Below, piece after piece: positions 732-44,008 of a DNA stretch of 44,188 nucleotides. The stretch's first letter is position 1. The number at the start of each line of letters is the position of its first letter. A program made the position numbers and the translations under genes. The DNA comes from a virus (lineage: Duplodnaviria > Heunggongvirae > Uroviricota > Caudoviricetes). The notes beneath the pieces are model-generated. The model saw nothing but the letters and a program-made list of their open reading frames with translations, did no database searches and was not told the origin of the DNA. Location: IMG/VR virus record IMGVR_UViG_3300045988_019982; one strand, written 5' to 3'.

Positions 732-2005
732 TGATTCTAAAAGAACGCGGCGGCAATAACGATGTGCACGCCCTGCTGTCGCCGTCAGGTGCTAAGAAGT
801 GGCTGACGTGCAGTGCATCACTGGCCTGTGAAAGAGATATCCCTAACACATCGGGTAAAGCCGCCGTATTAGGCACAGCCATGCACACCATAGCTGAGAT
901 GCATCTAAACCAGTACATCAAAGGCACTGCGTTGCCGTTAGAACGTGAAGTCGGTGCTTACGTGCTGGATGAGGGTAAAGGTCAGATTAAGGCGCTAATC
1001 AGTCCGATGAAAGGTGCGGTACTAATTACGGCGGACATGATTGAGCAGGTGCGCAAGTACACCGACTACTGCAAAGCGATTATCGATGTAGCGACTTACG
1101 CCAAGCTGGAAATGCGTGTCAATCTTACTGAGGTATTGCATCCGGGTTATGGAGGCGTTGAGACGTTCGGAACCGCCGACCTTGTTGCCGTTCTTGAAAA
1201 GGCGAACACAGACGAACATATCCTCAATGTTACCGACCTGAAAACCGGGCGGCATCGTGTCGAAGCGAAAGAAAACAAGCAGCTTATGCTTTACGCTCTC
1301 GGTGTTTATCGCCGGCTCAAGAGACGTTATAACATCACCATGGTTCGTCTGGTCATCTTCCAGCCGTACGCGGGTGGCGCGTCGGAGTGGGACATCTCAG
1401 TTGAAGGTCTGGAGCTGTTCGCTAAGTTTGCGCAGAAACGCGCACTGTTAGCCCTCGATGCTTATTCCCGCGGCAAGAAGAACCTGAAGGCATCGGATTT
1501 CAAGCCGTCAGTAGATGGTTGTCAGTGGTGCCGGTTCTCTGAACAGTGCGCCGCGCGTACAAAAACAGTTAACGCGGTACTGGCAGAAGAACTGGAGGAC
1601 GACTTTGCACTGGAACTGACGCCAGAGCAACTAGTAGCTGAATACGAGAAGCTGCCGCTGTTGCGCCAGCACATCGACAAGGTTGAAAAAGCGATGGCTG
1701 CCGCGTTGCATTCCGGTAAGAAAGTGCCGGGGTACAAGCTGGTTGAAGGTCGTCCTGGTAATCGTGCGTGGAAGGATGAAGACGCAGTAAATAAATTCAG
1801 AGAAAACCATGTAAACGGCTACTTATTAGATAAACTAGTGCCAGTTACCCCAACAGAAGCAGAAAAAACCATAGGTAAAATTGACCCAGAACTGTGGGAA
1901 GAATTGGCTAAACTCGTGACACGTAAGCCAGGCGCACCATGTGTCGCAACGGCAGACGACAAACGCCCTGAGTGGAATCAGGTAACAGAGGAGGATTTAG
2001 AATGA
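731..2005 (+). CDS. PD-(D/E)XK exonuclease, Cas4/RecB-like with Cys cluster
   Basis: Motifs GTADLVAV, TDLKTGRH (D-x-K), QLMLYALGVY (QxxxY); cysteines at LTCSASLAC and C-x2-C-x5-C (CQWCRFSEQC); C-terminal tail ...VTEEDLE. Confidence 0.75.
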   Translation: MILKERGGNNDVHALLSPSGAKKWLTCSASLACERDIPNTSGKAAVLGTAMHTIAEMHLNQYIKGTALPLEREVGAYVLDEGKGQIKALISPMKGAVLITADMIEQVRKYTDYCKAIIDVATYAKLEMRVNLTEVLHPGYGGVETFGTADLVAVLEKANTDEHILNVTDLKTGRHRVEAKENKQLMLYALGVYRRLKRRYNITMVRLVIFQPYAGGASEWDISVEGLELFAKFAQKRALLALDAYSRGKKNLKASDFKPSVDGCQWCRFSEQCAARTKTVNAVLAEELEDDFALELTPEQLVAEYEKLPLLRQHIDKVEKAMAAALHSGKKVPGYKLVEGRPGNRAWKDEDAVNKFRENHVNGYLLDKLVPVTPTEAEKTIGKIDPELWEELAKLVTRKPGAPCVATADDKRPEWNQVTEEDLE

Positions 2006-2253
2006 TTCGTAAAATGTTCAGGGTGCTTGGTGGGTTTGTGGCGTGTATTGTTTTCTGGGTTCTTATGCTGCCCCTAACGCTACCGACATTTATCTTAATG
2101 TGCCTTACGGTATGTGTAGCGCAAACTCGCGACATCGAAGCCATCCTGCGTGATAAATCGTGGAAGACACAGGCGCTTCGATTCATAAACAACATGAAAT
2201 GGCCCAACAAGTATATTGAGATAGTTGAGAAAATAACTGGCTGGAAGGGTTGA
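2002..2253 (+). CDS. small membrane protein (83 aa)
   Basis: ATG overlaps exonuclease stop (ATGA) with GAGGAGGA upstream; hydrophobic segments LGGFVACIVFWVLMLPLTLPTFILMCL. Confidence 0.55.
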   Translation: MIRKMFRVLGGFVACIVFWVLMLPLTLPTFILMCLTVCVAQTRDIEAILRDKSWKTQALRFINNMKWPNKYIEIVEKITGWKG

Positions 2254-2337: not shown

Positions 2338-2964
2338 ATGGGTATTAAACTGAATCTGCGTAAAGTAAACACTGCATGGGTTAACGTATTCGAACGCGAA
2401 AAAGACCGTGAAAACGATGATGGCTCAATCACTAAAGGCCAGTACAGCGCGACTATCATCCTGCCGTCTGACCACGCGCAAATCGACGCGCTCTACGACA
2501 CAGTTTATGCTGTAGTTGAAGAAGCATTGGGTGCCGCTGCTGCCGAGAAGTGGATGAAATCCAACTACGGAGAAGGTAAGCACATGGATAAATGTGCGAT
2601 TAAGGACATTGCCGAGCGTGACAATCCGTTTGAAGACTTCCCGGAAGGCTTCTACTTCAAAGCTAAGGCACAGAAACAGCCACTGATTGTAACCTCTAAA
2701 AAAGGTGAGACTCAGGTAGAACAGGACTTCAACGTAGACGGCGAACAGATTGAAGGTGAACAGGTTTACAGCGGCTGCGTTGCTAACGTAAGCGTCGAAA
2801 TCTGGTTCAGCCAGAAATACAAAGTCCTCGGTGTTAACCTGCTGGCGATTAAATATGTTGGCGAAGGTAAAGCGTTCGGTGGTTCTAAAGTCGCCGCAAG
2901 TGTAGACGACCTGGAAGACGACGATGAAGATGAAGCACCGCGACGCGAACGTCGCCGTCGCTAA
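2338..2964 (+). CDS. single-stranded DNA-binding protein, T7 gp2.5-like
   Basis: 208 aa; acidic C-terminal tail after FGG (VDDLEDDDEDEAPRRERRRR); block order resembles gp2.5 as recalled; sits before the polymerase gene. Confidence 0.5.
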   Translation: MGIKLNLRKVNTAWVNVFEREKDRENDDGSITKGQYSATIILPSDHAQIDALYDTVYAVVEEALGAAAAEKWMKSNYGEGKHMDKCAIKDIAERDNPFEDFPEGFYFKAKAQKQPLIVTSKKGETQVEQDFNVDGEQIEGEQVYSGCVANVSVEIWFSQKYKVLGVNLLAIKYVGEGKAFGGSKVAASVDDLEDDDEDEAPRRERRRR

Positions 2965-3023: not shown

Positions 3024-5195
3024 ATGAGTTACCTGTTCTTAGACTTTGAAACATTCTCCGAGGCCGATTTAAAGAAAGTTGGCTCCTACGCTTACGCCGA
3101 ACACCCAACCACCGAAGTGCTCATCTGTACCTATGCTTTTGACGACGAGCCTGTACAGGTATGGGATTGCACCGACGGCAGCGACATGCCGGGAGATTTG
3201 CACCGCGCGTTACGCCGTCTGGTTAAGCCAAACAGCCGCATCAAGATGGTGTGGCACAACGGCTCAATGTTCGATCGTCTTGTCATGAAGCACTGCTGGG
3301 GTTTTGATATTCCGGTAAGCAACACCATTGATACGATGATTTGGGCGTTTCGTCACGCGCTGCCGGGTTCACTTGATGCGTTGTGCGAAGTGCTGGGCGT
3401 ATCTGCGGACAACGCGAAAGACAAACGCGGCAAGGCTCTGATTCAGCGTTTTTCTAAACCGACGCCGAAGAACTACAAAATACGTCGCTACACCGCCGAA
3501 ACACACCCGGACGAGTGGGCGATATTCATCAAGTACGCCGTGAGCGACATCACCGCGATGCGTGAAGTCTTCCATAAGCTGCCGCGTTGGGGTAACTCCG
3601 AGTTCGAGGACCGGGTGCTTGAGCTGGACCAGTTAATCAATGACCGAGGGTTTAAGGTTGACGTAGCGCTGGCAGAAGCCGCAATTGAAGCCGTGGAGAA
3701 ACACAAAGCGCAGTTACAGGAAGAAGCCCAGCGCAAATACGGCGGCTCTCTTACTGGTAAAGACTTCCTTCCGATTCTGCGCGAACTTGCGCCCGCGCAC
3801 CGCATCCACAATGCGCAGAAGTCAACGCTTCATGACCTGCTGGCAGACGATGATTTACCGGACGATGCGCGTACTATTATCGAAATGCGGCTCGGGGCCG
3901 CGTCCACCGCATCAACGAAATATAACCCACTGCTGTTGGGCCGCTCTTCGGACGACCGACGCCGCGGTTGTATCCAGTACGGCGGGGCAAAGCGTACGTT
4001 ACGGTTTGCGGGTAAAGGCTTCCAGCCGCAGAACCTCGCACGCGGGTACTATCATGATGATGAACTGGATAAAGGTATTTCCGCGCTACTTAAAGGCCGT
4101 GCGCATCGCCGTTTTGATGTAGCCAAACTAACGGCATCGACGGTGCGTAGCTGCATCATACCGGAAGCCGGGCATAAGTTTGTCGTTGCCGATTACTCTA
4201 ACGTTGAAGGCCGTGGTTTGGCGTGGCTGGCTGGGGAAGACGATTTAATCGAAGTATTTGTAAACGGGGTTGATGTGTATAAGAAACTCGCATCAACGGT
4301 GTTCAACGTTGCCTATGAGGATGTAACAAAGGACCAAAGACAAATAGCCAAAGCAATGGTTCTGGGCCTCGGCTACGCGGGAGGTGTCGGTGCTTTCGTC
4401 ACGTTTGCTAAAAACTTAGGTCTTGATTTGAACGATATGGCCCGCACTTTAGACGGAACTTTCCCGGACCATATTTGGGCTGCTACCGCACGCGGTTACG
4501 AGTGGGCGCGTATTCAGGAAGCCAAGCGACCACCACGTCCTGGTGAAAAGGATGACAGGCCATCGTATATTCTTGATAAGAAAGTGTGGCGTACCTGCGA
4601 CGCTTTAAAACGCATGTACCGAGAAGCTAATCCTGCAATAGTCAAATTCTGGCGGGATATTGAAGACGCGGCCATGGCGGCTATCCGCAACCCAGGTAAA
4701 GAGTTCACCGCAGGGCCACGCGGCGTTAAGTTTTCGCGTAACGTAGAGACAGACAACAACGGCAACAAAGTCGCCGGTTGGTGGTTGCGCATGACGTTGC
4801 CGTCGGGCCGCGTCATGTCTTACCCGGGCGTCGGGTTGAGCGTGTCGAAAGAGACAGACGAAGACGGGAAGGTGTCTACTAACGTGCGCATCAAGTACCA
4901 GGGTGAAAATCAGCTAACCCGTCAGTGGGGGTTCCAGTACACCTACTCCGGTAAACTGGTGGAAAACTGCACTCAGGCGTTGTGCCGTGATTTGCTGGCC
5001 AACGCGCTGCTGAACGTTGAGGCAAACGGCTACCCGATTGTGCTTCACGTACACGATGAGATTATCTGCGAGACACCAGATTTACCGGAATACAATGTAG
5101 CAGAGCTTGAGCGGTTGATGTGCGAATTACCGGAATGGGCAGAAGGCTTCCCTCTTGTAGCGGAAGGTGCGGAGATGAAGCGTTATGCTAAGTAA
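3024..5195 (+). CDS. DNA polymerase, family A, with 3'-5' exonuclease domain
   Basis: 723 aa; Exo I LFLDFETFS; motif A DYSNVEGR; motif B RQIAKAMVLGLGYAGG; motif C HVHDE. Confidence 0.9.
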   Translation: MSYLFLDFETFSEADLKKVGSYAYAEHPTTEVLICTYAFDDEPVQVWDCTDGSDMPGDLHRALRRLVKPNSRIKMVWHNGSMFDRLVMKHCWGFDIPVSNTIDTMIWAFRHALPGSLDALCEVLGVSADNAKDKRGKALIQRFSKPTPKNYKIRRYTAETHPDEWAIFIKYAVSDITAMREVFHKLPRWGNSEFEDRVLELDQLINDRGFKVDVALAEAAIEAVEKHKAQLQEEAQRKYGGSLTGKDFLPILRELAPAHRIHNAQKSTLHDLLADDDLPDDARTIIEMRLGAASTASTKYNPLLLGRSSDDRRRGCIQYGGAKRTLRFAGKGFQPQNLARGYYHDDELDKGISALLKGRAHRRFDVAKLTASTVRSCIIPEAGHKFVVADYSNVEGRGLAWLAGEDDLIEVFVNGVDVYKKLASTVFNVAYEDVTKDQRQIAKAMVLGLGYAGGVGAFVTFAKNLGLDLNDMARTLDGTFPDHIWAATARGYEWARIQEAKRPPRPGEKDDRPSYILDKKVWRTCDALKRMYREANPAIVKFWRDIEDAAMAAIRNPGKEFTAGPRGVKFSRNVETDNNGNKVAGWWLRMTLPSGRVMSYPGVGLSVSKETDEDGKVSTNVRIKYQGENQLTRQWGFQYTYSGKLVENCTQALCRDLLANALLNVEANGYPIVLHVHDEIICETPDLPEYNVAELERLMCELPEWAEGFPLVAEGAEMKRYAK

Positions 5196-6054: not shown

Positions 6055-6995
6055 ACTATTACAACGAATGGGATAAAGGCGCAGCCGCGTGGCTGCGTGA
6101 ATTAATAAAACAGGGCCACATACCTTTTGGAGTTGTAGATGAAAGAAGCATTACCGAAGTTAAGCCAGAAGACCTTGACGGGTTCACCCAGTGTCATTTT
6201 TTCGCTGGCATCGGCGGCTGGCCTCTCGCGCTCAGACTTGCGGGAGTTTCGGAAGATACGCCTCTCTGGACGGGAAGCCCGCCTTGCCAACCGTTTAGCG
6301 CGGCAGGAAAACAACTCGGACAGTTCGACCCGAGACACCTCGCGCCAGTCTTCCTCGACCTCATCAGCGAGTGCCACCCTCCAGTCCTCTTTGGGGAACA
6401 GGTTGCGCCAGCAATTGCAAAATCGTGGATGTGCGATTTACAAACTCACCTGGAAGGAGAAGACTACGCCGTCGGGTTTGCCGTACTCCCAGCTTGTAGC
6501 GTCGGCGCTCCGCACAAAAGAGAACGACTCTTCTTTGGTGCGTACCAACTGGCCTGCACCGACAGCGAACGATTACAAAGGGAGCGGAGAGACTGTTATC
6601 CGCAAGGACGGGAAGGACAGAACATTCGACAGGCTGGACTACTCAACGGAACAGGGGCTAAAACTGACGAATTGGCCCACCCCTCGCAGTTCGGATGGGG
6701 AAAAGAACGTGAGAACACTAGAGGGGGCGCTATCGGAGATTCAGAGGAAGGGTGGGCCTCAAGACGTGGCACAAGCGGCGGCGATAACACAACTAATTCG
6801 CATCACGGCTTCTGGTCAGATGCTGACTGGCTCGGATGCCGGGATGGAAAGTTCCGGCCAGTTGAACCCGACACATTCCCGCTGGCTAATGGGATACCCG
6901 CCAGAGTGGGACGATTGCGCGGTTACGGCAATGCCATCGTCCCGCAAGTAGCCGCCGAATTTATAAAGGCGTTTATGGGGGCCGTAAATGAGTAA
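6051..6995 (+). CDS. DNA (cytosine-5)-methyltransferase, possibly frame-disrupted
   Basis: Motif I FFAGIGG, IV SPPCQPFSAAGK, VI FGEQV, VIII HKRERLFFG, X GYGNAIVPQVAAEFI in this frame; central third is low-complexity while frame +1 (6541-6951) reads like a real domain. Confidence 0.65.
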   Translation: MNYYNEWDKGAAAWLRELIKQGHIPFGVVDERSITEVKPEDLDGFTQCHFFAGIGGWPLALRLAGVSEDTPLWTGSPPCQPFSAAGKQLGQFDPRHLAPVFLDLISECHPPVLFGEQVAPAIAKSWMCDLQTHLEGEDYAVGFAVLPACSVGAPHKRERLFFGAYQLACTDSERLQRERRDCYPQGREGQNIRQAGLLNGTGAKTDELAHPSQFGWGKERENTRGGAIGDSEEGWASRRGTSGGDNTTNSHHGFWSDADWLGCRDGKFRPVEPDTFPLANGIPARVGRLRGYGNAIVPQVAAEFIKAFMGAVNE

Positions 6996-8412
6996 GTTTC
7001 AAAGGCGCGAATACCAGAAGCTCATGACTTCGTTCATGCTGCAACATCCGCGCTGTAATATTTGGGCGAGCATGGGCGCCGGGAAGACCGGCAGCGTACT
7101 GTGGACATTAAACCGACTGTTCCGCAACGGCCAACTTAATGATGACGACCGCGTGTTAATACTCGCCCCGCTGCGCGTTGCGTCCGGCACATGGCCCGCA
7201 GAACAAGAGAAATGGCAATTCCCATGCCTGAATGTCGTCGATGCTACCGGTTCAGAGAAGCGCCGCATCACGGCGCTGGAGTCAGACGCCAATGTGATTT
7301 GCATCAACTACGAGGTCATAGACTGGCTTATTGACTATTACGGCGTGGATGACTGGCCATTTACTGTAATAGTCAACGATGAAAGCACGAAATTGAAATC
7401 ATATCGTAGCCGTTCCGGGGGGAGCAAGCGGGCTAAGGCACTTAGTAAAGTAGCATTCAGAAATGTTAAGAGGTTGATAAACCTTACTGGTACGCCATCG
7501 CCAAACGGCCTCAAGGATTTGTGGGGCCAGAACTGGTTTATAGACGCTGGCGAGCGACTTGGTTCTTCGTACACGGCATTCACCGACCGCTGGTTTAACT
7601 CGGTACAGAAGGGCAAATCAGCTATGGCGCGCGAGTACCACGCCCGCCCTGGCGCAGATAACGAGATTCACCAGAAGATGAAGGATATTAGTCTCACTAT
7701 TGACGCTGCCGAGTGGTTCGGCTGTGAAGCGCCGATTATCGTTCCTGTTGAAATCGACCTGCCGAAGAAAGCACGTCAGGCGTACATTGATATGGAGGAG
7801 AAGTTATTCGCGGAACTGGAGAGCGGGGAAGTTGAAGCGGCTAATGCAGCAGCGAAGACGTCGAAGTGTTTGCAGATTGCCTCTGGTGCCGTGTATGTAT
7901 CGGGGCCAGACGGTGAAGCAACCAAAGACTGGGAGAAAGTGCACGACACGAAACTGGATGCGCTCGAGTCGATTGTTGAGGAGTTACAGGGCGCTCCGTT
8001 ACTGGTGGCCTATCAGTTTAAGCACGAACTGGAACGTATCCTTAAGCGTTTCCCACAAGCTCAGGCGTTTGCCAAAGGTGCGAAGGGCAATAAGCAGATG
8101 GAGGCGTGGAACCGTGGCGAAATACCTATGCTCCTGATACACCCCGCCTCCGCAGGCCACGGGCTGTCGCTACAACACGGCGGGCACCACATGGCCTTTA
8201 TGAGTCAGGGGTGGAACCTGGAACATTATCTGCAGGTTATCGAGCGTATAGGCCCAGTAAGGCAGATGCAATCTGGGTATAAACGGTCTGTATTCATTTA
8301 TCAAATAATAGCCCGAGATACTCTTGATGAAGTTGTTGCCGCGCGTACCGACGAGAAAAGGTCCGTACAGGACGAACTACTTAATTATATGAAGCGCAGA
8401 GGTAAGAAATGA
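6988..8412 (+). CDS. superfamily 2 ATP-dependent helicase
   Basis: 474 aa; Walker A ASMGAGKTGS; box II VIVNDESTKLK; ATG overlaps MTase stop. Confidence 0.75.
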   Translation: MSKFQRREYQKLMTSFMLQHPRCNIWASMGAGKTGSVLWTLNRLFRNGQLNDDDRVLILAPLRVASGTWPAEQEKWQFPCLNVVDATGSEKRRITALESDANVICINYEVIDWLIDYYGVDDWPFTVIVNDESTKLKSYRSRSGGSKRAKALSKVAFRNVKRLINLTGTPSPNGLKDLWGQNWFIDAGERLGSSYTAFTDRWFNSVQKGKSAMAREYHARPGADNEIHQKMKDISLTIDAAEWFGCEAPIIVPVEIDLPKKARQAYIDMEEKLFAELESGEVEAANAAAKTSKCLQIASGAVYVSGPDGEATKDWEKVHDTKLDALESIVEELQGAPLLVAYQFKHELERILKRFPQAQAFAKGAKGNKQMEAWNRGEIPMLLIHPASAGHGLSLQHGGHHMAFMSQGWNLEHYLQVIERIGPVRQMQSGYKRSVFIYQIIARDTLDEVVAARTDEKRSVQDELLNYMKRRGKK

Positions 8413-40044: not shown

Positions 40045-40073
40045 TTGATTTCCCATTATTCGCAATGTATACT
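40045..40073 (+). promoter_or_regulatory. sigma70-like promoter (TTGATT-N17-TATACT) for the + strand operon ending with primase
   Basis: ttgatttcccattattcgcaatgtatact. Confidence 0.5.
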
Positions 40074-40105
40074 TGGTTCCTATAACTGATAATGAGGGTT
40101 TGAGA

Positions 40106-40276
40106 ATGACACAGAATGAGGTAGCTGAGCGTATCGGGGTTACTCGTCGCACACTTAATAACTGGTTAAAGAGTGGGAAGTTCCCGGATTGTTGTATCCG
40201 TATTATGGGTCGCCGTCAGCCAGGTACGTTCGACCCGGAGAAAGTGGAAGCGTGGATTAAGGAGAACGTGAAATGA
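40106..40276 (+). CDS. small helix-turn-helix DNA-binding protein
   Basis: MTQNEVAERIGVTRRTLNNWLKSGKFP is a classic HTH; ATG at 40106 with GAGGG SD. Confidence 0.55.
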   Translation: MTQNEVAERIGVTRRTLNNWLKSGKFPDCCIRIMGRRQPGTFDPEKVEAWIKENVK

Positions 40277-40506
40277 CCGAATTTCAGTCGCGCGTATTTA
40301 CGGCGGTCGTTTCGTTAACACGTAAAAAAGGGTCATGCAGTGTTATCGACTTGCGCCGTAGTTATTTTAAGTACTATAGTTCAGCCATTATTGAAGGGTC
40401 GTTGAAAGTGCTGGTTAAATCGGGTGTCGTGAAAAACGTTGGCGGGAAATATAACGCTGTTGCTGAAGTTCGCGGAATGACCGCTACTTTAGAAGACCTG
40501 GAATAA
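40273..40506 (+). CDS. hypothetical protein (77 aa) ending in LEDLE
   Basis: ATGA coupling to upstream gene; C-terminus ...RGMTATLEDLE. Confidence 0.5.
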   Translation: MTEFQSRVFTAVVSLTRKKGSCSVIDLRRSYFKYYSSAIIEGSLKVLVKSGVVKNVGGKYNAVAEVRGMTATLEDLE

Positions 40507-40565: not shown

Positions 40566-42833
40566 ATGTCCGATGTAATTTTATCCTACTCGTGGTCTCG
40601 TCGCAACGCGCGGGCGGAGAAAAAGGATATAAACGTCAAAACCACACACACGGCAACACTGGACGACCTGAAAGAGCTAATTAAGCCGCTTGATGCTATT
40701 CGTGATGGAATTAACCCGAAGACCGCGCCTGGCTACATCACCGCCGCGTGTGACTCGACGCACAGCACCGTAAAAGACCCGGAAACCGGCGACTTTAAGC
40801 AGGCGCGTAAAGGCTTCTTCTATCGTTGCGACGCGTCTGTAAGCAAATCGTCACTGGCGTATCTGGATTTCGACAGCGCAACGCCGGAAGAGTATCAGGA
40901 AGCGGTGCGCCGGGTTAAGCGCAGTCGTCGCGCGATGTGCCTCTACACCACGGCATCCCATACCGATGAGTCACCGCGCTTTCGCGTCGTCATGCCGCTG
41001 GGTCGCCCTGTCGAAGGGGGTGACATCATCCGCGTACGTCACGGGTTGCTGGAACACTTCTTCAAAGGCATGGGCGCTGACCGCAGCGGGTTCACTCTGT
41101 CGCAGCCGATGTATCTGCCTCCGGTCGGCGCTACCGTTATCTGGTCGCGCCGTAACGACCTGATTGACCCGGACGAGTTGCTTGAAGGCATCCCCGACGT
41201 TGACGTTAGCAGCGCATCCGACTACCAGATACCGGAAGAACTGCGCACCGCGTTTACTGATGCGTTTGAAGCACTGGCATTCGAGTACGGCGGCATCATG
41301 ACACCCCGCGGTCTGAAAATGCCAGCTACGCCGGAACACGCAGAAAACTACAGCGACCCGACGCCGCGTCCGGATGACTTCCTGCTGTGTTTCCCGCGTG
41401 AAGGGTACGAAGCGCCGAACGTAACCATGATTCATGACACCGACATTACGGCGACCGAAGGCATGCCACCGAAAGAGGTGTGGAAGTATGCGTGCGATGC
41501 GACAGGGCTGCCGTTCAGTGAAGTTGCAGAGGCCATCGGATGGGGTGCACGTGAATCTGTTTCATGCAGCCTGGACGACCTGGAAGACGACGAGGATCCA
41601 GAGGAGGACGAGTTACCGGAACCGGTAAAGGCGGATTTCGTCGTTGAGGGGTACATGCCGTCGGATTGCATCTGGGATATCGTCGGGGAATCTGGCACGT
41701 ACAAATCGTTCTATACGCTGGGGATGATGTACCTCAGCGCCGCCGGATACCGGTTTGCGGGAGCCGATACGCAGCGTTGCCACCATTTCTATATCGACGG
41801 CGAGGGTGGTGCAGCTACGCGCACACGTATCGATGCACTCGCGGCTAAATACGGCGAGGAAGGTAAAGATTATGTACATGTCATTGACATGGGTGAAGTC
41901 GGCAAGCTGAAAAACCTGATTAAGTTGATGCGTGAAACTGCTGGCGACGAGCCAATTGGCATGGTTGCGTTCGACACCCTTAACCAGACGCTGGCCCTGA
42001 CGATTGATAAGTTTGACGAGAACAGTTCATCAACGGCAATCGGCATGGGTAAAGTCATCGCCATCCTGAAAGAAGTGCGTGACGCGACTAAAGCTGCGGT
42101 AGGCGTTGTCCACCATACGCCGAAGGGTGGAAAGAAAGCCCGCGGCAGCGGGGCGCTGTATGCGGGCGTCGACGTGGAACTGACAATTGAACGCGCAACC
42201 GACCGCCAGATAAACGTATATCACTCTAAATTTAAGCACGGGCCGCAACAGAAGACGGTCGGCATGGTGCTTGAGTCTGTACAGTTCCGTGAAGCGCCGC
42301 CGCCGAAAGAGTATCGCGCCGTTGAGTTCCTCGGTAGCACGGAGGAATACGGCACAATAGTAAACCTCGACCTGCCGGAGCCGCACAAGGCGCTTGTGCT
42401 GATGCCGTGGGGCTTCGAGCCGTTCAAGACTGACGAGGAGAAAGAGCGGGAAGAAGGTCTGACAAAGGAAGGTAAAGAAAACGTACGTAAAACCGTAGAG
42501 AACGCCGTCAACAGTTCGGAGGCCACGATACTGGCAGCGTTTGAACTGGCAGAAGGAACCTACAGCGGCAACGAAGGTATCACGGTAGCCGCAGCGAATA
42601 AGCTCGCACAGTCCGACCCTAACGCAAAGGCGTTCAACTCTAAAGAAGCCATAGAACGCGGGAAGATTAAGAAAATGGTTGAGGCCGGGTATCTTGTTCC
42701 GGGTACTGACGAAAACAATCAGATAATCCCTGGCCGTTACAGGCTGAACACCCGGATAACGGATAACAAGATTCCGAAGACAATATACGAACCGAATGAA
42801 ATGTTAACAGTGACAGAGGAGGATTTGGAATGA
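40566..42833 (+). CDS. primase-helicase (P-loop NTPase with N-terminal primase-like region)
   Basis: Walker A-like GESGTYKSF, VVHHTPKGG; ATG at 40566 with AAGGAA SD (track GTG start 40524 lacks SD); C-terminus ...VTEEDLE. Confidence 0.75.
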   Translation: MSDVILSYSWSRRNARAEKKDINVKTTHTATLDDLKELIKPLDAIRDGINPKTAPGYITAACDSTHSTVKDPETGDFKQARKGFFYRCDASVSKSSLAYLDFDSATPEEYQEAVRRVKRSRRAMCLYTTASHTDESPRFRVVMPLGRPVEGGDIIRVRHGLLEHFFKGMGADRSGFTLSQPMYLPPVGATVIWSRRNDLIDPDELLEGIPDVDVSSASDYQIPEELRTAFTDAFEALAFEYGGIMTPRGLKMPATPEHAENYSDPTPRPDDFLLCFPREGYEAPNVTMIHDTDITATEGMPPKEVWKYACDATGLPFSEVAEAIGWGARESVSCSLDDLEDDEDPEEDELPEPVKADFVVEGYMPSDCIWDIVGESGTYKSFYTLGMMYLSAAGYRFAGADTQRCHHFYIDGEGGAATRTRIDALAAKYGEEGKDYVHVIDMGEVGKLKNLIKLMRETAGDEPIGMVAFDTLNQTLALTIDKFDENSSSTAIGMGKVIAILKEVRDATKAAVGVVHHTPKGGKKARGSGALYAGVDVELTIERATDRQINVYHSKFKHGPQQKTVGMVLESVQFREAPPPKEYRAVEFLGSTEEYGTIVNLDLPEPHKALVLMPWGFEPFKTDEEKEREEGLTKEGKENVRKTVENAVNSSEATILAAFELAEGTYSGNEGITVAAANKLAQSDPNAKAFNSKEAIERGKIKKMVEAGYLVPGTDENNQIIPGRYRLNTRITDNKIPKTIYEPNEMLTVTEEDLE

Positions 42834-43027
42834 GCGGTAAATTTAAAGAAGTAAGCGACGAACTGAAAGGTAATAAATACACCAACCACAGAGGTGAAAT
42901 AGTAGAAGTTCTTAACGTAGTTCCTTATGGGCGTGGCTACCATGTTGTGTTCAGCTACACGGAGGCTTACAGCGTGTACTGCGGGTTAGGTAAGTTTCGC
43001 AAAAGATACCCGATAAAGGTGCAATAA
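42830..43027 (+). CDS. hypothetical protein (65 aa)
   Basis: ATGA-coupled to primase stop with GAGGAGGA SD (same cassette as exonuclease/2002). Confidence 0.5.
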   Translation: MSGKFKEVSDELKGNKYTNHRGEIVEVLNVVPYGRGYHVVFSYTEAYSVYCGLGKFRKRYPIKVQ

Positions 43028-43546: not shown

Positions 43547-44008
43547 ATGTTAGACCAATTCTTAAAATTACTGGAACGTTTCGTAGTTGCCCATGAACTG
43601 ATTGCTGCGAACAGTGTGAAACAGGTTGTCGTTGCTGAAACTGCAACAATCGGGCCTACTGTTGCAACAAAAGAAATCCCGGTTGAAGGAGAAGACGTCG
43701 TCGACACTAAACCTGCAGAAGAAGAGAAGCCGAAACGCAAGCCGCGTAAAGGTAAAGTAGAGGAACCTGCGCCAGAGCCGGAAGAAGAGAAAGAAGAGGT
43801 CGATTACCAGTCCATTCGCGACCAGATTCAGGCTATCGACGACGCGATTAACGAGGGTCCTAGTGATGCCGCGTGCGATGATTCCGATGAACTGCTGGAA
43901 GAGTTCACCGGTAAGAAGATGAAGATTGCCGCGATTAAAGACGAAGACCTTGCGGAGTACCTGGAACGCCTGACGGCAATCAAGAACAAGTATTTCGAAG
44001 AAGAATAA
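43547..44008 (+). CDS. acidic hypothetical early protein (153 aa)
   Basis: ACAGGAGAA SD; Glu/Asp/Pro-rich linker (EEEKPKRKPRKGKVEEPAPEPEEEKEE). Confidence 0.55.
   Translation: MLDQFLKLLERFVVAHELIAANSVKQVVVAETATIGPTVATKEIPVEGEDVVDTKPAEEEKPKRKPRKGKVEEPAPEPEEEKEEVDYQSIRDQIQAIDDAINEGPSDAACDDSDELLEEFTGKKMKIAAIKDEDLAEYLERLTAIKNKYFEEE

Follow-up and report, generated by a model that had tools for sequence, protein, structure and literature searches.

A shared acidic Asp-Leu motif on the single-strand-binding protein, exonuclease, primase-helicase and a small winged-helix protein of a phage replication module: a candidate docking peptide that in two genes overlaps a ribosome-binding site

In phage T7, the C-terminal tail of gp2.5, a protein that binds single-stranded DNA (an SSB), anchors to the front basic patch of the gp5 polymerase (PMC12339929), the acidic C-terminal tails of the gp4 helicase bind positively charged polymerase patches and add to processivity (PMC8472574), and stimulation of the gp6 exonuclease requires the gp2.5 tail (PMC4124056). 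Bacterial SSBs carry an acidic-hydrophobic linear motif for recruitment, DDDIPF, at the end of a disordered tail (the SSB C-terminus, or SSB-Ct). In phage lambda it is a folded C-terminal domain of the annealase that binds the nuclease. Here a different arrangement is described in a 44,188-nucleotide stretch of viral DNA (IMG/VR record IMGVR_UViG_3300045988_019982; termed here the window), in which an exonuclease, a primase-helicase and a 77-residue protein (p77) end in nearly the same acidic peptide, and in which the phage's own gp2.5-like SSB contains a further copy. Patterns of conservation and divergence among relatives suggest, with a probability that we put at roughly 0.6, that this peptide, [AV]-[ST]-[DE/L]-x-D-L-[E/x], serves several client proteins as a short linear docking motif and came from the tail of the SSB.

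The window is the complete or near-complete genome of a Kagunavirus-like (Guernseyvirinae) siphophage of E. coli, and the three tailed proteins belong to one replication/recombination module that spans both of its ends. The exonuclease ends ...NQVTEEDLE, the primase-helicase ...LTVTEEDLE and p77 ...ATLEDLE, exactly as described in an initial annotation made from the letters of the window. Among 323 six-frame open reading frames (ORFs) of at least 40 residues, these are the only three with an acidic-D-L-acidic ending; given the amino-acid frequencies of the window, C-terminal [DE]DLE is expected 0.0025 times in a crude set of 78 genes, and the probability of three or more is about 3e-9. Chance is therefore excluded as the source of the shared tails. 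Within the whole proteome (about 78 genes, 13,830 residues) [DE]DLE occurs five times, always in a replication protein: at the three C-termini, in the interdomain linker of the primase-helicase and in the SSB. The SSB copy (SVDDLEDDDEDE; S188-V-D-D-L-E193, with an acidic run to residue 199) lies directly after the OB fold. The initial annotation had credited the SSB with an acidic C-terminal tail of its own; an acidic segment does exist, but it carries the same motif and is internal, being followed by a conserved basic end, APRRERRRR. The restriction to few proteins also holds more widely: the pattern [DE]DL.{0,5}$ matches 158 of the 14,446 ORFs in 74 related loci, 150 of these being orthologs of the exonuclease, primase-helicase or p77 and 7 belonging to one further small protein of the replication module, so that 157 of the 158 fall into four families.

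The likeness to T7 lies in an SSB of gp2.5 fold with an acidic segment (followed here by a basic end), in the similar short acidic peptides carried by SSB and primase-helicase (here TEEDLE at the primase-helicase C-terminus, the tail being conserved in all lineages), in a family A polymerase within the replisome and in the functional dependence of the T7 exonuclease on the SSB tail (PMC4124056). The T7 tails, however, as read from NC_001604 (...EADEDGDF and ...WSNDTDF), have only D-F in common, whereas the peptide here has the defined form S/T-acidic-x-D-L, in which the Leu is invariant, and lacks a terminal Phe; moreover, a recombination exonuclease and a winged-helix protein are also carriers, the SSB copy is internal and has a basic extension, and the primase-helicase is an AAA_25-type protein unrelated to gp4. 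The bacterial SSB-Ct, too, is an acidic-hydrophobic linear motif, one that recruits proteins from a disordered SSB tail, and the tails of distant relatives of the window's proteins (DFDDV...DLI$) look similar to it; but the topology is inverted, with many tail carriers and presumably one reading site, and the SSB is of gp2.5 type rather than a homotetrameric OB-fold protein and, in the window, ends RRERRRR, no terminal Phe being present in the window clade. The bacterial signature, D-D-D-[IL]-P-F at the C-terminus of a tetrameric OB-fold SSB, is accordingly absent here. As with lambda Exo-Red-beta and RecE-RecT, an exonuclease and an annealing partner lie side by side and specific recognition is to be expected; in contrast to lambda, nuclease and annealase/SSB carry the same linear motif, which implies either a third party or competition. 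No description of the motif was found in the literature on Guernseyvirinae or on DUF2800/DUF2815, and an SSB motif placed on a recombination nuclease and accessory proteins, and covarying across a module family, is apparently undescribed. The principle of a docking tail is known from T7; the variant proposed here is new, though in principle it would not surprise a T7 specialist.

The two TEEDLE tails share 20 of 21 nucleotides (ACAGAGGAGGATTTRGAATGA), a nucleotide identity to which the initial annotation had already drawn attention. At both junctions GAGGAGG, a Shine-Dalgarno (SD) sequence, is separated by 7 nucleotides from an ATG that overlaps the upstream stop codon as ATGA, i.e., the arrangement typical of translational coupling (an SD 5-9 nucleotides before an ATG overlapping the upstream stop). 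TEEDLE might consequently be a by-product of a reused initiation cassette (SD, A/T-rich spacer and ATGA), its amino acids being incidental--a view that draws on the shared nucleotides, with their SD at optimal spacing, and on the correlation, detailed below, between SD-forming codons and coupling. Against it, the peptide is kept where the cassette is missing. The orthologs considered were drawn from three sets of IMG/VR loci, namely 73 that surround exonuclease orthologs, 9 that represent additional lineages and 80 that are distant; among these, 23 uncoupled exonucleases retain the peptide using GAA GAA and TAA. In about 20 Kagunavirus exonucleases the end reads AGT GAA GAA GAT TTG GAA TAA, followed by promoter-like AGTGTTGACA, so that the peptide SEEDLE is encoded without an SD, without ATGA and without an overlapping gene. 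Similarly, 28 uncoupled primase-helicases of Kagunavirus and Jerseyvirus (e.g., that of Bas76) end TE[EDG]DLE; their stop codon, TAG or TAA, precedes a GC-rich terminator hairpin, and the gene beyond it lies on the opposite strand. Nor is any ribosome-binding site (RBS) involved in the copies within p77, the SSB and the primase-helicase linker, and the peptide persists in lineages whose nucleotide sequence is entirely different. The uncoupled orthologs thus refute the cassette as the sole explanation, to which we assign next to no probability; it survives only as an account of codon choice.

Conservation of the exonuclease tail is nearly universal: [ST]-[DE]-[DE]-D-L-[ES] or a close variant ends essentially every ortholog, from 96% to 44% identity; [ST][DE]xDLx is kept in at least 70 of them, as far as 44% identity; and when 15 DUF2800 representatives (33-53% identical) are aligned, the tail positions D422 and L423 are invariant although column identity averages 41%. 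Zero to five residues follow the motif Leu, and the last residue of a tail in the window clade is E, D, S, A or N. On the question of peptide versus nucleotide sequence, the decisive comparison is with primase-helicases that are only 25-33% identical to that of the window and that lie on the strand opposite to the exonuclease. These occur in Dhillonvirus, in phages like Klebsiella phage 37P2/VLCpiS11a, in Cornellvirus FSL SP-031 and in metagenomic lineages, and they still end D-x-D-L-x(x): ATDDDLKD, ASDEDLNS, SEEDDLEN, AGDEDLEN or AADEDLE. The exonucleases of the same lineages end ATDEDLSNE, ASDEDLS, ATDSDLDD, ASDDDLAN or VSDEDLA. For p77, whose tail in the window is encoded by ACT TTA GAA GAC CTG GAA TAA, the orthologs of Jerseyvirus (65-70% identity) use other codons for their ending, ATPEDLE, and a homolog at 33% identity, with a linker 14 residues longer, ends NIS[RH]DLE. 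The initial annotation had taken the distinct codons of the p77 tail as a sign of selection at the peptide level, a view upheld by the uncoupled SEEDLE and TEEDLE orthologs and by the primase-helicases at 25-33% identity. It had also named, as what would refute it, orthologs that keep only the SD/ATGA nucleotides while the encoded residues vary freely; the opposite was found, since the residues are conserved while the nucleotides vary. Selection on the peptide is thereby supported.

A fifth carrier occurs in the Klebsiella 37P2-like group, where an ORF of 62 or 67 residues, whose stop overlaps the polymerase start as ATGA, always ends ATDEDLE. Its versions share an N-terminal half, but their C-terminal halves are unrelated apart from ATDEDLE; possibly it is a polymerase accessory protein that carries the motif. 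Two irregularities were seen among the loci: in L044 (10001-11059) a frameshift or an assembly error cuts the exonuclease ORF short near residue 353, and in L020 (11209-11421) a 70-residue ORF that follows the exonuclease itself ends ...KKEDLE.

If the peptide is selected, the nucleotides beneath it are constrained as well. Among Kagunavirus and Jerseyvirus exonucleases, SD-forming codons (GAG GAG or GAG GAT) encode the two acidic residues before the Asp in 24 of 25 coupled orthologs and in 0 of 23 uncoupled ones (Fisher p=1.6e-12, uncorrected for phylogeny), which confirms that the tail overlaps an SD-plus-ATGA coupling site, as had been noted for the window. Copies that bear an RBS read GAG GAG GAT TTR GAA, i.e., an SD and an A/T-rich spacer; those that do not (p77, SSB and primase-helicase linker) use the genome-preferred codons GAC and CTG. 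Because the choice of codons within the tail tracks the downstream RBS, the site is truly dual-coding: the same 18 nucleotides specify a conserved peptide and the ribosome-binding site of the next gene. In tails overlapped by ATGA, codons are chosen so that E-E-D reads GAG GAG GAT, an SD. Since the non-RBS copies of the window use preferred codons, the best explanation for the 20/21-nucleotide identity of the TEEDLE tails is that one peptide is exposed to one RBS pressure in both, the peptide not being incidental. The architecture at the two junctions is exactly that of ATGA coupling with an SD inside the upstream ORF; what sets it apart from ordinary coupling is that the SD codons also encode a conserved peptide, the dual constraint being visible as codon switching, and it thus offers a clean natural example of dual coding within one 18-nucleotide stretch. 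At least five different small genes start at the exonuclease ATGA in relatives (L001-L049) and four at the primase-helicase ATGA, while some relatives have no coupled gene after the primase-helicase, the same tail being followed there by TAG or TAA and a terminator; both ATGA junctions are mosaic boundaries. After the TAA of uncoupled exonucleases (e.g., L009, ~7002-7025) comes AGTGTTGACACCTGAATAG, with a -35-like TTGACA, which suggests a promoter for the SSB/polymerase operon at this junction.

In every lineage of the wider clade, the SSB has a [ST]DxDL[EDG]D+ segment just beyond the OB fold, which closes with a conserved ...GEAFGG...; the segment is ASVDDLEDDDEDE in the window, ANDDDLDDDDEDD in the Klebsiella group, SDEDLGDDDEDE in Dhillonvirus, ATDSDLDDDDD in Cornellvirus (L075), ATDDDLGDEDE in L076 and ATDDDLGDDDD in L080. 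In the Cornellvirus the SSB residues ATDSDLDD are identical to the tail of its own exonuclease. Near-lineage SSBs have basic or basic/acidic repeat extensions downstream of the motif, such as the APRRERRRR of the window, which they appear to have acquired. In the distant set (80 loci, mostly of proteobacterial temperate phages, with exonucleases 30-38% identical to that of the window) the SSB ends at the motif, and SSB and exonuclease share a bipartite tail, [DE][DE]F[DE]D[IVL]...[DE]DL[IV]; L086/L087 provide an example, with VEDDFEDVTSDENVEDLV at the end of the exonuclease and SEDEFDDIAEGATADDLV at that of the SSB. These ends pair within genomes (DLV-DLV, DMI-DMI, SLI-SLI, EFI-EFV, AIA-SLA): over 50 dereplicated pairs, exonuclease and SSB agree on average at 1.52 of their last three residues versus 0.88±0.08 after permutation of genomes, the observed mean being reached in 0 of 20,000 permutations, again uncorrected for ancestry. 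Two non-homologous proteins thus track each other's tail, as a shared receptor predicts. The analogy that the initial annotation drew with the tails of T7 and of E. coli SSB is strengthened by both observations, i.e., by the motif in the gp2.5-like SSB of every lineage and by the covariation in distant relatives.

This covariation bears on a rather improbable alternative, in which the tails act in cis or within homo-oligomers, each as an acidic mimic of single-stranded DNA (ssDNA) or as a latch on its own protein's DNA-binding surface, for autoinhibition or for oligomer stabilisation as proposed for T7 gp2.5 dimers, with no common partner. Such behaviour has precedents, in that the tail of T7 gp2.5 and ssDNA compete for the protein's own OB cleft (PMC10359462, with Marintcheva 2008 as cited there) and, in crystals of the Enc34 SSB, the tail is packed against a neighbouring molecule (PMC5686142); the exonuclease tail, too, is not of low confidence in its AlphaFold2 (AF2) model. 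Yet four unrelated folds (RecB nuclease, OB fold, AAA+ helicase and winged helix) would each need a surface to match one specific S/T-acidic-x-D-L peptide, the tails persist although the linkers before them vary in length between homologs, and covariation between exonuclease and SSB within genomes is what a shared receptor, rather than separate surfaces, predicts.

The distant loci (L084-L163) have two further properties. DL[IVLAF]$ occurs there on 17 dereplicated other genes versus 3.3 expected (about 5-fold; control patterns are at expectation), including those for N6/N4 and C5 methyltransferases, an AEP-PriCT-VapE primase and GapR-like, Sf6-type small-terminase-like and Rha-like proteins; and DFDD[VI], with which the bipartite tails open, is similar to the tip of E. 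coli SSB. Both might be taken to mean that the tail addresses a host factor--for instance by mimicking the C-terminus of host SSB (DDDIPF) and so recruiting the proteins that interact with it, or in the role of a clamp-binding motif or a degron--inasmuch as DFDD[VI]...DL[IV]$ recalls bacterial SSB tails and the methyltransferases and the small-terminase-like and GapR-like proteins carry the ending in excess. This is unlikely, however, and distinctly more so than action in cis. The tails of the window clade lack a terminal aromatic or hydrophobic residue, no Q-L-x-L-F clamp motif is present, and zero to five variable residues after an invariant Leu are a poor fit to a carboxylate-reading pocket, so that the C-terminal carboxylate is probably not read. 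Two specific candidates were rejected: a beta-clamp-binding motif (Q-L-[SD]-L-F or QLxLxL), since none of the tails has a Gln or a terminal Phe/Leu pattern, and, for the window clade, mimicry of the host SSB-Ct, for want of a terminal aromatic residue.

In the docking reading, which we favour, the motif would have originated in the C-terminal tail of the phage's gp2.5-type SSB and would be displayed as well on the C-termini of the exonuclease, the primase-helicase and the winged-helix p77, and possibly in the primase-helicase linker; proteins carrying the SSB's own motif would bind the same receptor site as the SSB, and clients would be concentrated or exchanged at the replication/recombination fork. 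That the motif binds a protein, and which one, is inferred. The most likely receptor would be the family A DNA polymerase of the module, which is present in every module examined and which ranks first because of the T7 analogy and because duf2800-gp2.5-polA forms a fixed module; on a rough weighting within the docking model, it would have somewhat less than an even chance, the SSB core (its ssDNA-binding cleft) or basic end a clearly smaller one and the SNF2 helicase a smaller one again, with other or host proteins making up the rest. Every part of the initial annotation's interpretation that could be tested computationally held.

Were the gp2.5-like SSB itself the receptor, client tails would bind its ssDNA cleft or its basic end, and the exonuclease or helicase would be loaded onto SSB-coated DNA, or the SSB evicted locally. 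Exonuclease and SSB/annealase are a functional pair encoded by adjacent genes (PMC8093625), the Arg-rich SSB end is conserved in all near lineages, acidic tails bind OB clefts in T7 and lambda Exo binds its annealase (PDB 6M9K is among the fold matches). The SSB has the same motif, however, and would compete with its own clients; furthermore, distant SSBs end at the motif, without a basic extension, and the exonuclease tail is conserved there all the same. We regard this arrangement as improbable, to about the degree that action in cis is.

Several points weigh against docking at a common site. The exonuclease tail has a predicted local distance difference test (pLDDT) score of 74-81 and forms a short one-turn helix (residues 420-423, at EEDL) in the AF2 model, and because of this moderate confidence it may be packed against its own protein instead of lying free. 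Also lacking is a terminal aromatic residue, essential in T7 and in bacterial SSB, the conserved hydrophobic residue here being a Leu at -2 to -6. The linker copy of the primase-helicase has a conserved Cys and conserved flanks and may be a structured element. The SSB copy sits internally, with a basic extension behind it, so that its accessibility and its equivalence to the C-terminal copies are putative. Neither the covariation test nor the Fisher test is corrected for shared ancestry and, finally, the choice of receptor is a guess guided by analogy.

The linker motif, C-[TQS]-[DL]-x-D-L-x-[DN], is kept in all lineages at 25-33% identity. In L046 (Jerseyvirus, ~7876-7920) it is tandemly duplicated (DEEDLADEEDLADEE). 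In the window, the SSB copy (2905-2924) and the linker copy (41574-41593) are identical at 20 of 20 nucleotides (GACGACCTGGAAGACGACGA), an identity found in 0 of 100 shuffles; once the peptide is given, the chance that the codons also coincide is about 0.007. The corresponding copies of relatives show 1-3 synonymous differences. Preferred codons, or else occasional short-patch gene conversion between motif copies, could account for this.

The carriers themselves are structurally diverse. By sequence and model, the exonuclease is predicted to be a RecB-family Fe-S nuclease: it has a PD-(D/E)XK core and a four-Cys cluster and matches the family hidden Markov model, residues D150, D169 and K171 and C27, C264, C267 and C273 being invariant in the 15-sequence alignment, and its AF2 model (pLDDT 84) matches the nuclease domains of AdnA, AddB, Dna2, MGME1, Exo5 and Cas4. 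The p77 model (pLDDT 86.6) has an H-H-H-beta-beta topology whose best matches are winged-helix domains (LexA N-terminal domain, MotA, RPA32C), and its last 11 residues are of low confidence (pLDDT 59-68). Searches of PDB sequences with the exonuclease and primase-helicase found no solved relative. The idea that p77 is a free-standing domain of the primase-helicase was discarded when BLASTP against the C-terminal 120 residues of the latter gave no alignment. The p77 slot, between HTH gene and primase-helicase (L001-L048), is a cassette slot filled in other Kagunaviruses by unrelated tail-less genes, of 96 (ending LLEELAKR or HLMECLAKR), 70 or 149 residues, or by a distant 91-residue p77 homolog that keeps ...DLE. 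In seven Kagunaviruses (L001, L002, L003, L011, L022, L036, L038) the primase-helicase does not align with that of the window over its N-terminal ~315-350 residues; the primase domain has therefore been swapped, the helicase half and TEEDLE being retained.

Coordinates are collected in Table 1. The module reads, in order, helix-turn-helix (HTH) protein, p77, primase-helicase, small ORFs, DUF2800 exonuclease, 83-residue ORF, SSB and family A polymerase, after which come a VRR-NUC protein, a C5 methyltransferase and an SNF2 helicase (65-90% identical between lineages). The DNA of its replication genes is 88-91% identical to that of K1G, K1H, ST20 and BASEL phages Bas70-76 and 60-90% identical to that of about 300 Salmonella Jersey-like phages.

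Table 1. Positions of the motif copies and of the module's genes in the window and, in the last two rows, of the fifth carrier in related loci
Feature	Coordinates	Strand	Support or remark
DUF2800 / RecB-type (Fe-S) exonuclease (predicted), 424 residues	731..2005	+	Pfam DUF2800 E=1e-70, PDDEXK_1
Exonuclease C-terminal motif T-E-E-D-L-E	1985..2002	+	stop 2003-2005
SD GAGGAGG (1988-1994) and ATGA overlap (ATG 2002-2004), for the 83-residue gene	1988..2005	+	
83-residue hydrophobic ORF, translationally coupled to exonuclease	2002..2253	+	Pfam: no match
gp2.5-like (Enc34/DUF2815) SSB / annealing protein, 208 residues	2338..2964	+	Pfam PF10991 E=8e-16; PDB 4JG2, 5ODJ sequence matches
SSB motif copy S-V-D-D-L-E, then acidic run DDDEDE	2899..2934	+	
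SSB basic end APRRERRRR	2935..2961	+	conserved
Family A DNA polymerase	3024..5195	+	Pfam DNA_pol_A
SNF2-type helicase	6988..8412	+	Pfam SNF2-rel_dom
HTH protein	40073-40276		
p77, 77-residue winged-helix protein (predicted)	40273..40506	+	AF2 fold; Pfam: no match
p77 C-terminal motif T-L-E-D-L-E	40486..40503	+	within low-confidence tail, residues 67-77
Primase-helicase, 755 residues from ATG 40566	40566..42833	+	likely start ATG 40566, longest ORF begins GTG 40524; Pfam AAA_25; orthologs annotated 'replicative helicase-primase'
Primase-helicase interdomain-linker motif copy C-S-L-D-D-L-E-DDEDPEEDE	41565..41612	+	
Primase-helicase C-terminal motif T-E-E-D-L-E	42813..42830	+	stop 42831-42833
SD GAGGAGG (42816-42822) and ATGA overlap (ATG 42830-42832), for the 65-residue gene	42816..42833	+	
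65-residue ORF coupled to primase-helicase	42830..43027	+	
Fifth-carrier ORF, locus L052	12417-12605		coupled to polymerase
Fifth-carrier ORF, locus L056	12553-12756		coupled to polymerase

Other termini in the module are conserved as well. A 153-residue acidic protein (43547-44008), with no Pfam match, ends ...KNKYFEEE, where the orthologs of all lineages have KYYE[IV]E[DE] or YFELED; this is a second, different conserved acidic/aromatic C-terminal tail within the same module. Basic ends are found on the polymerase (...ELKRYAK, 5181-5192), the SNF2 helicase (...YMKR[KR]K-like, 8398-8409) and the SSB (...APRRERRRR, 2935-2961), and are kept in every lineage, distant ones included (polymerase GFEAYRYRKD, helicase AMKKRG..), so that acidic-tailed and basic-tailed proteins coexist in the module.

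More tentatively than docking itself, the SSB-tail motif may be a portable 'fork address tag' that, throughout the very large family of DUF2800-gp2.5-PolA modules in phages and prophages, has been grafted repeatedly onto unrelated DNA-handling proteins--the nuclease, two types of primase-helicase, winged-helix proteins, DNA methyltransferases, and GapR-like and small-terminase-like proteins--and that co-evolves with a single receptor site. If so, it would constitute a phage interaction hub with a topology inverse to that of the bacterial SSB-Ct interactome, and replisome clients would become predictable from sequence alone.

The module concerned is widespread: duf2800-gp2.5-polA is a recognised conserved module (PMC8093625), and 11,997 clusters in a representative library are related to the nuclease, making DUF2800-gp2.5-PolA one of the commonest phage replication/recombination modules. 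A conserved, covarying tail is a handle that can be read from sequence and that predicts which proteins cooperate at the fork. We know of no protein-protein contacts described for this module. The tail peptides could be used to find the receptor, and their carriers include easily handled phages of E. coli and Salmonella, among them members of the BASEL collection. As a handle on this very common and uncharacterised module, the tail is specific and can be put to the test at once.

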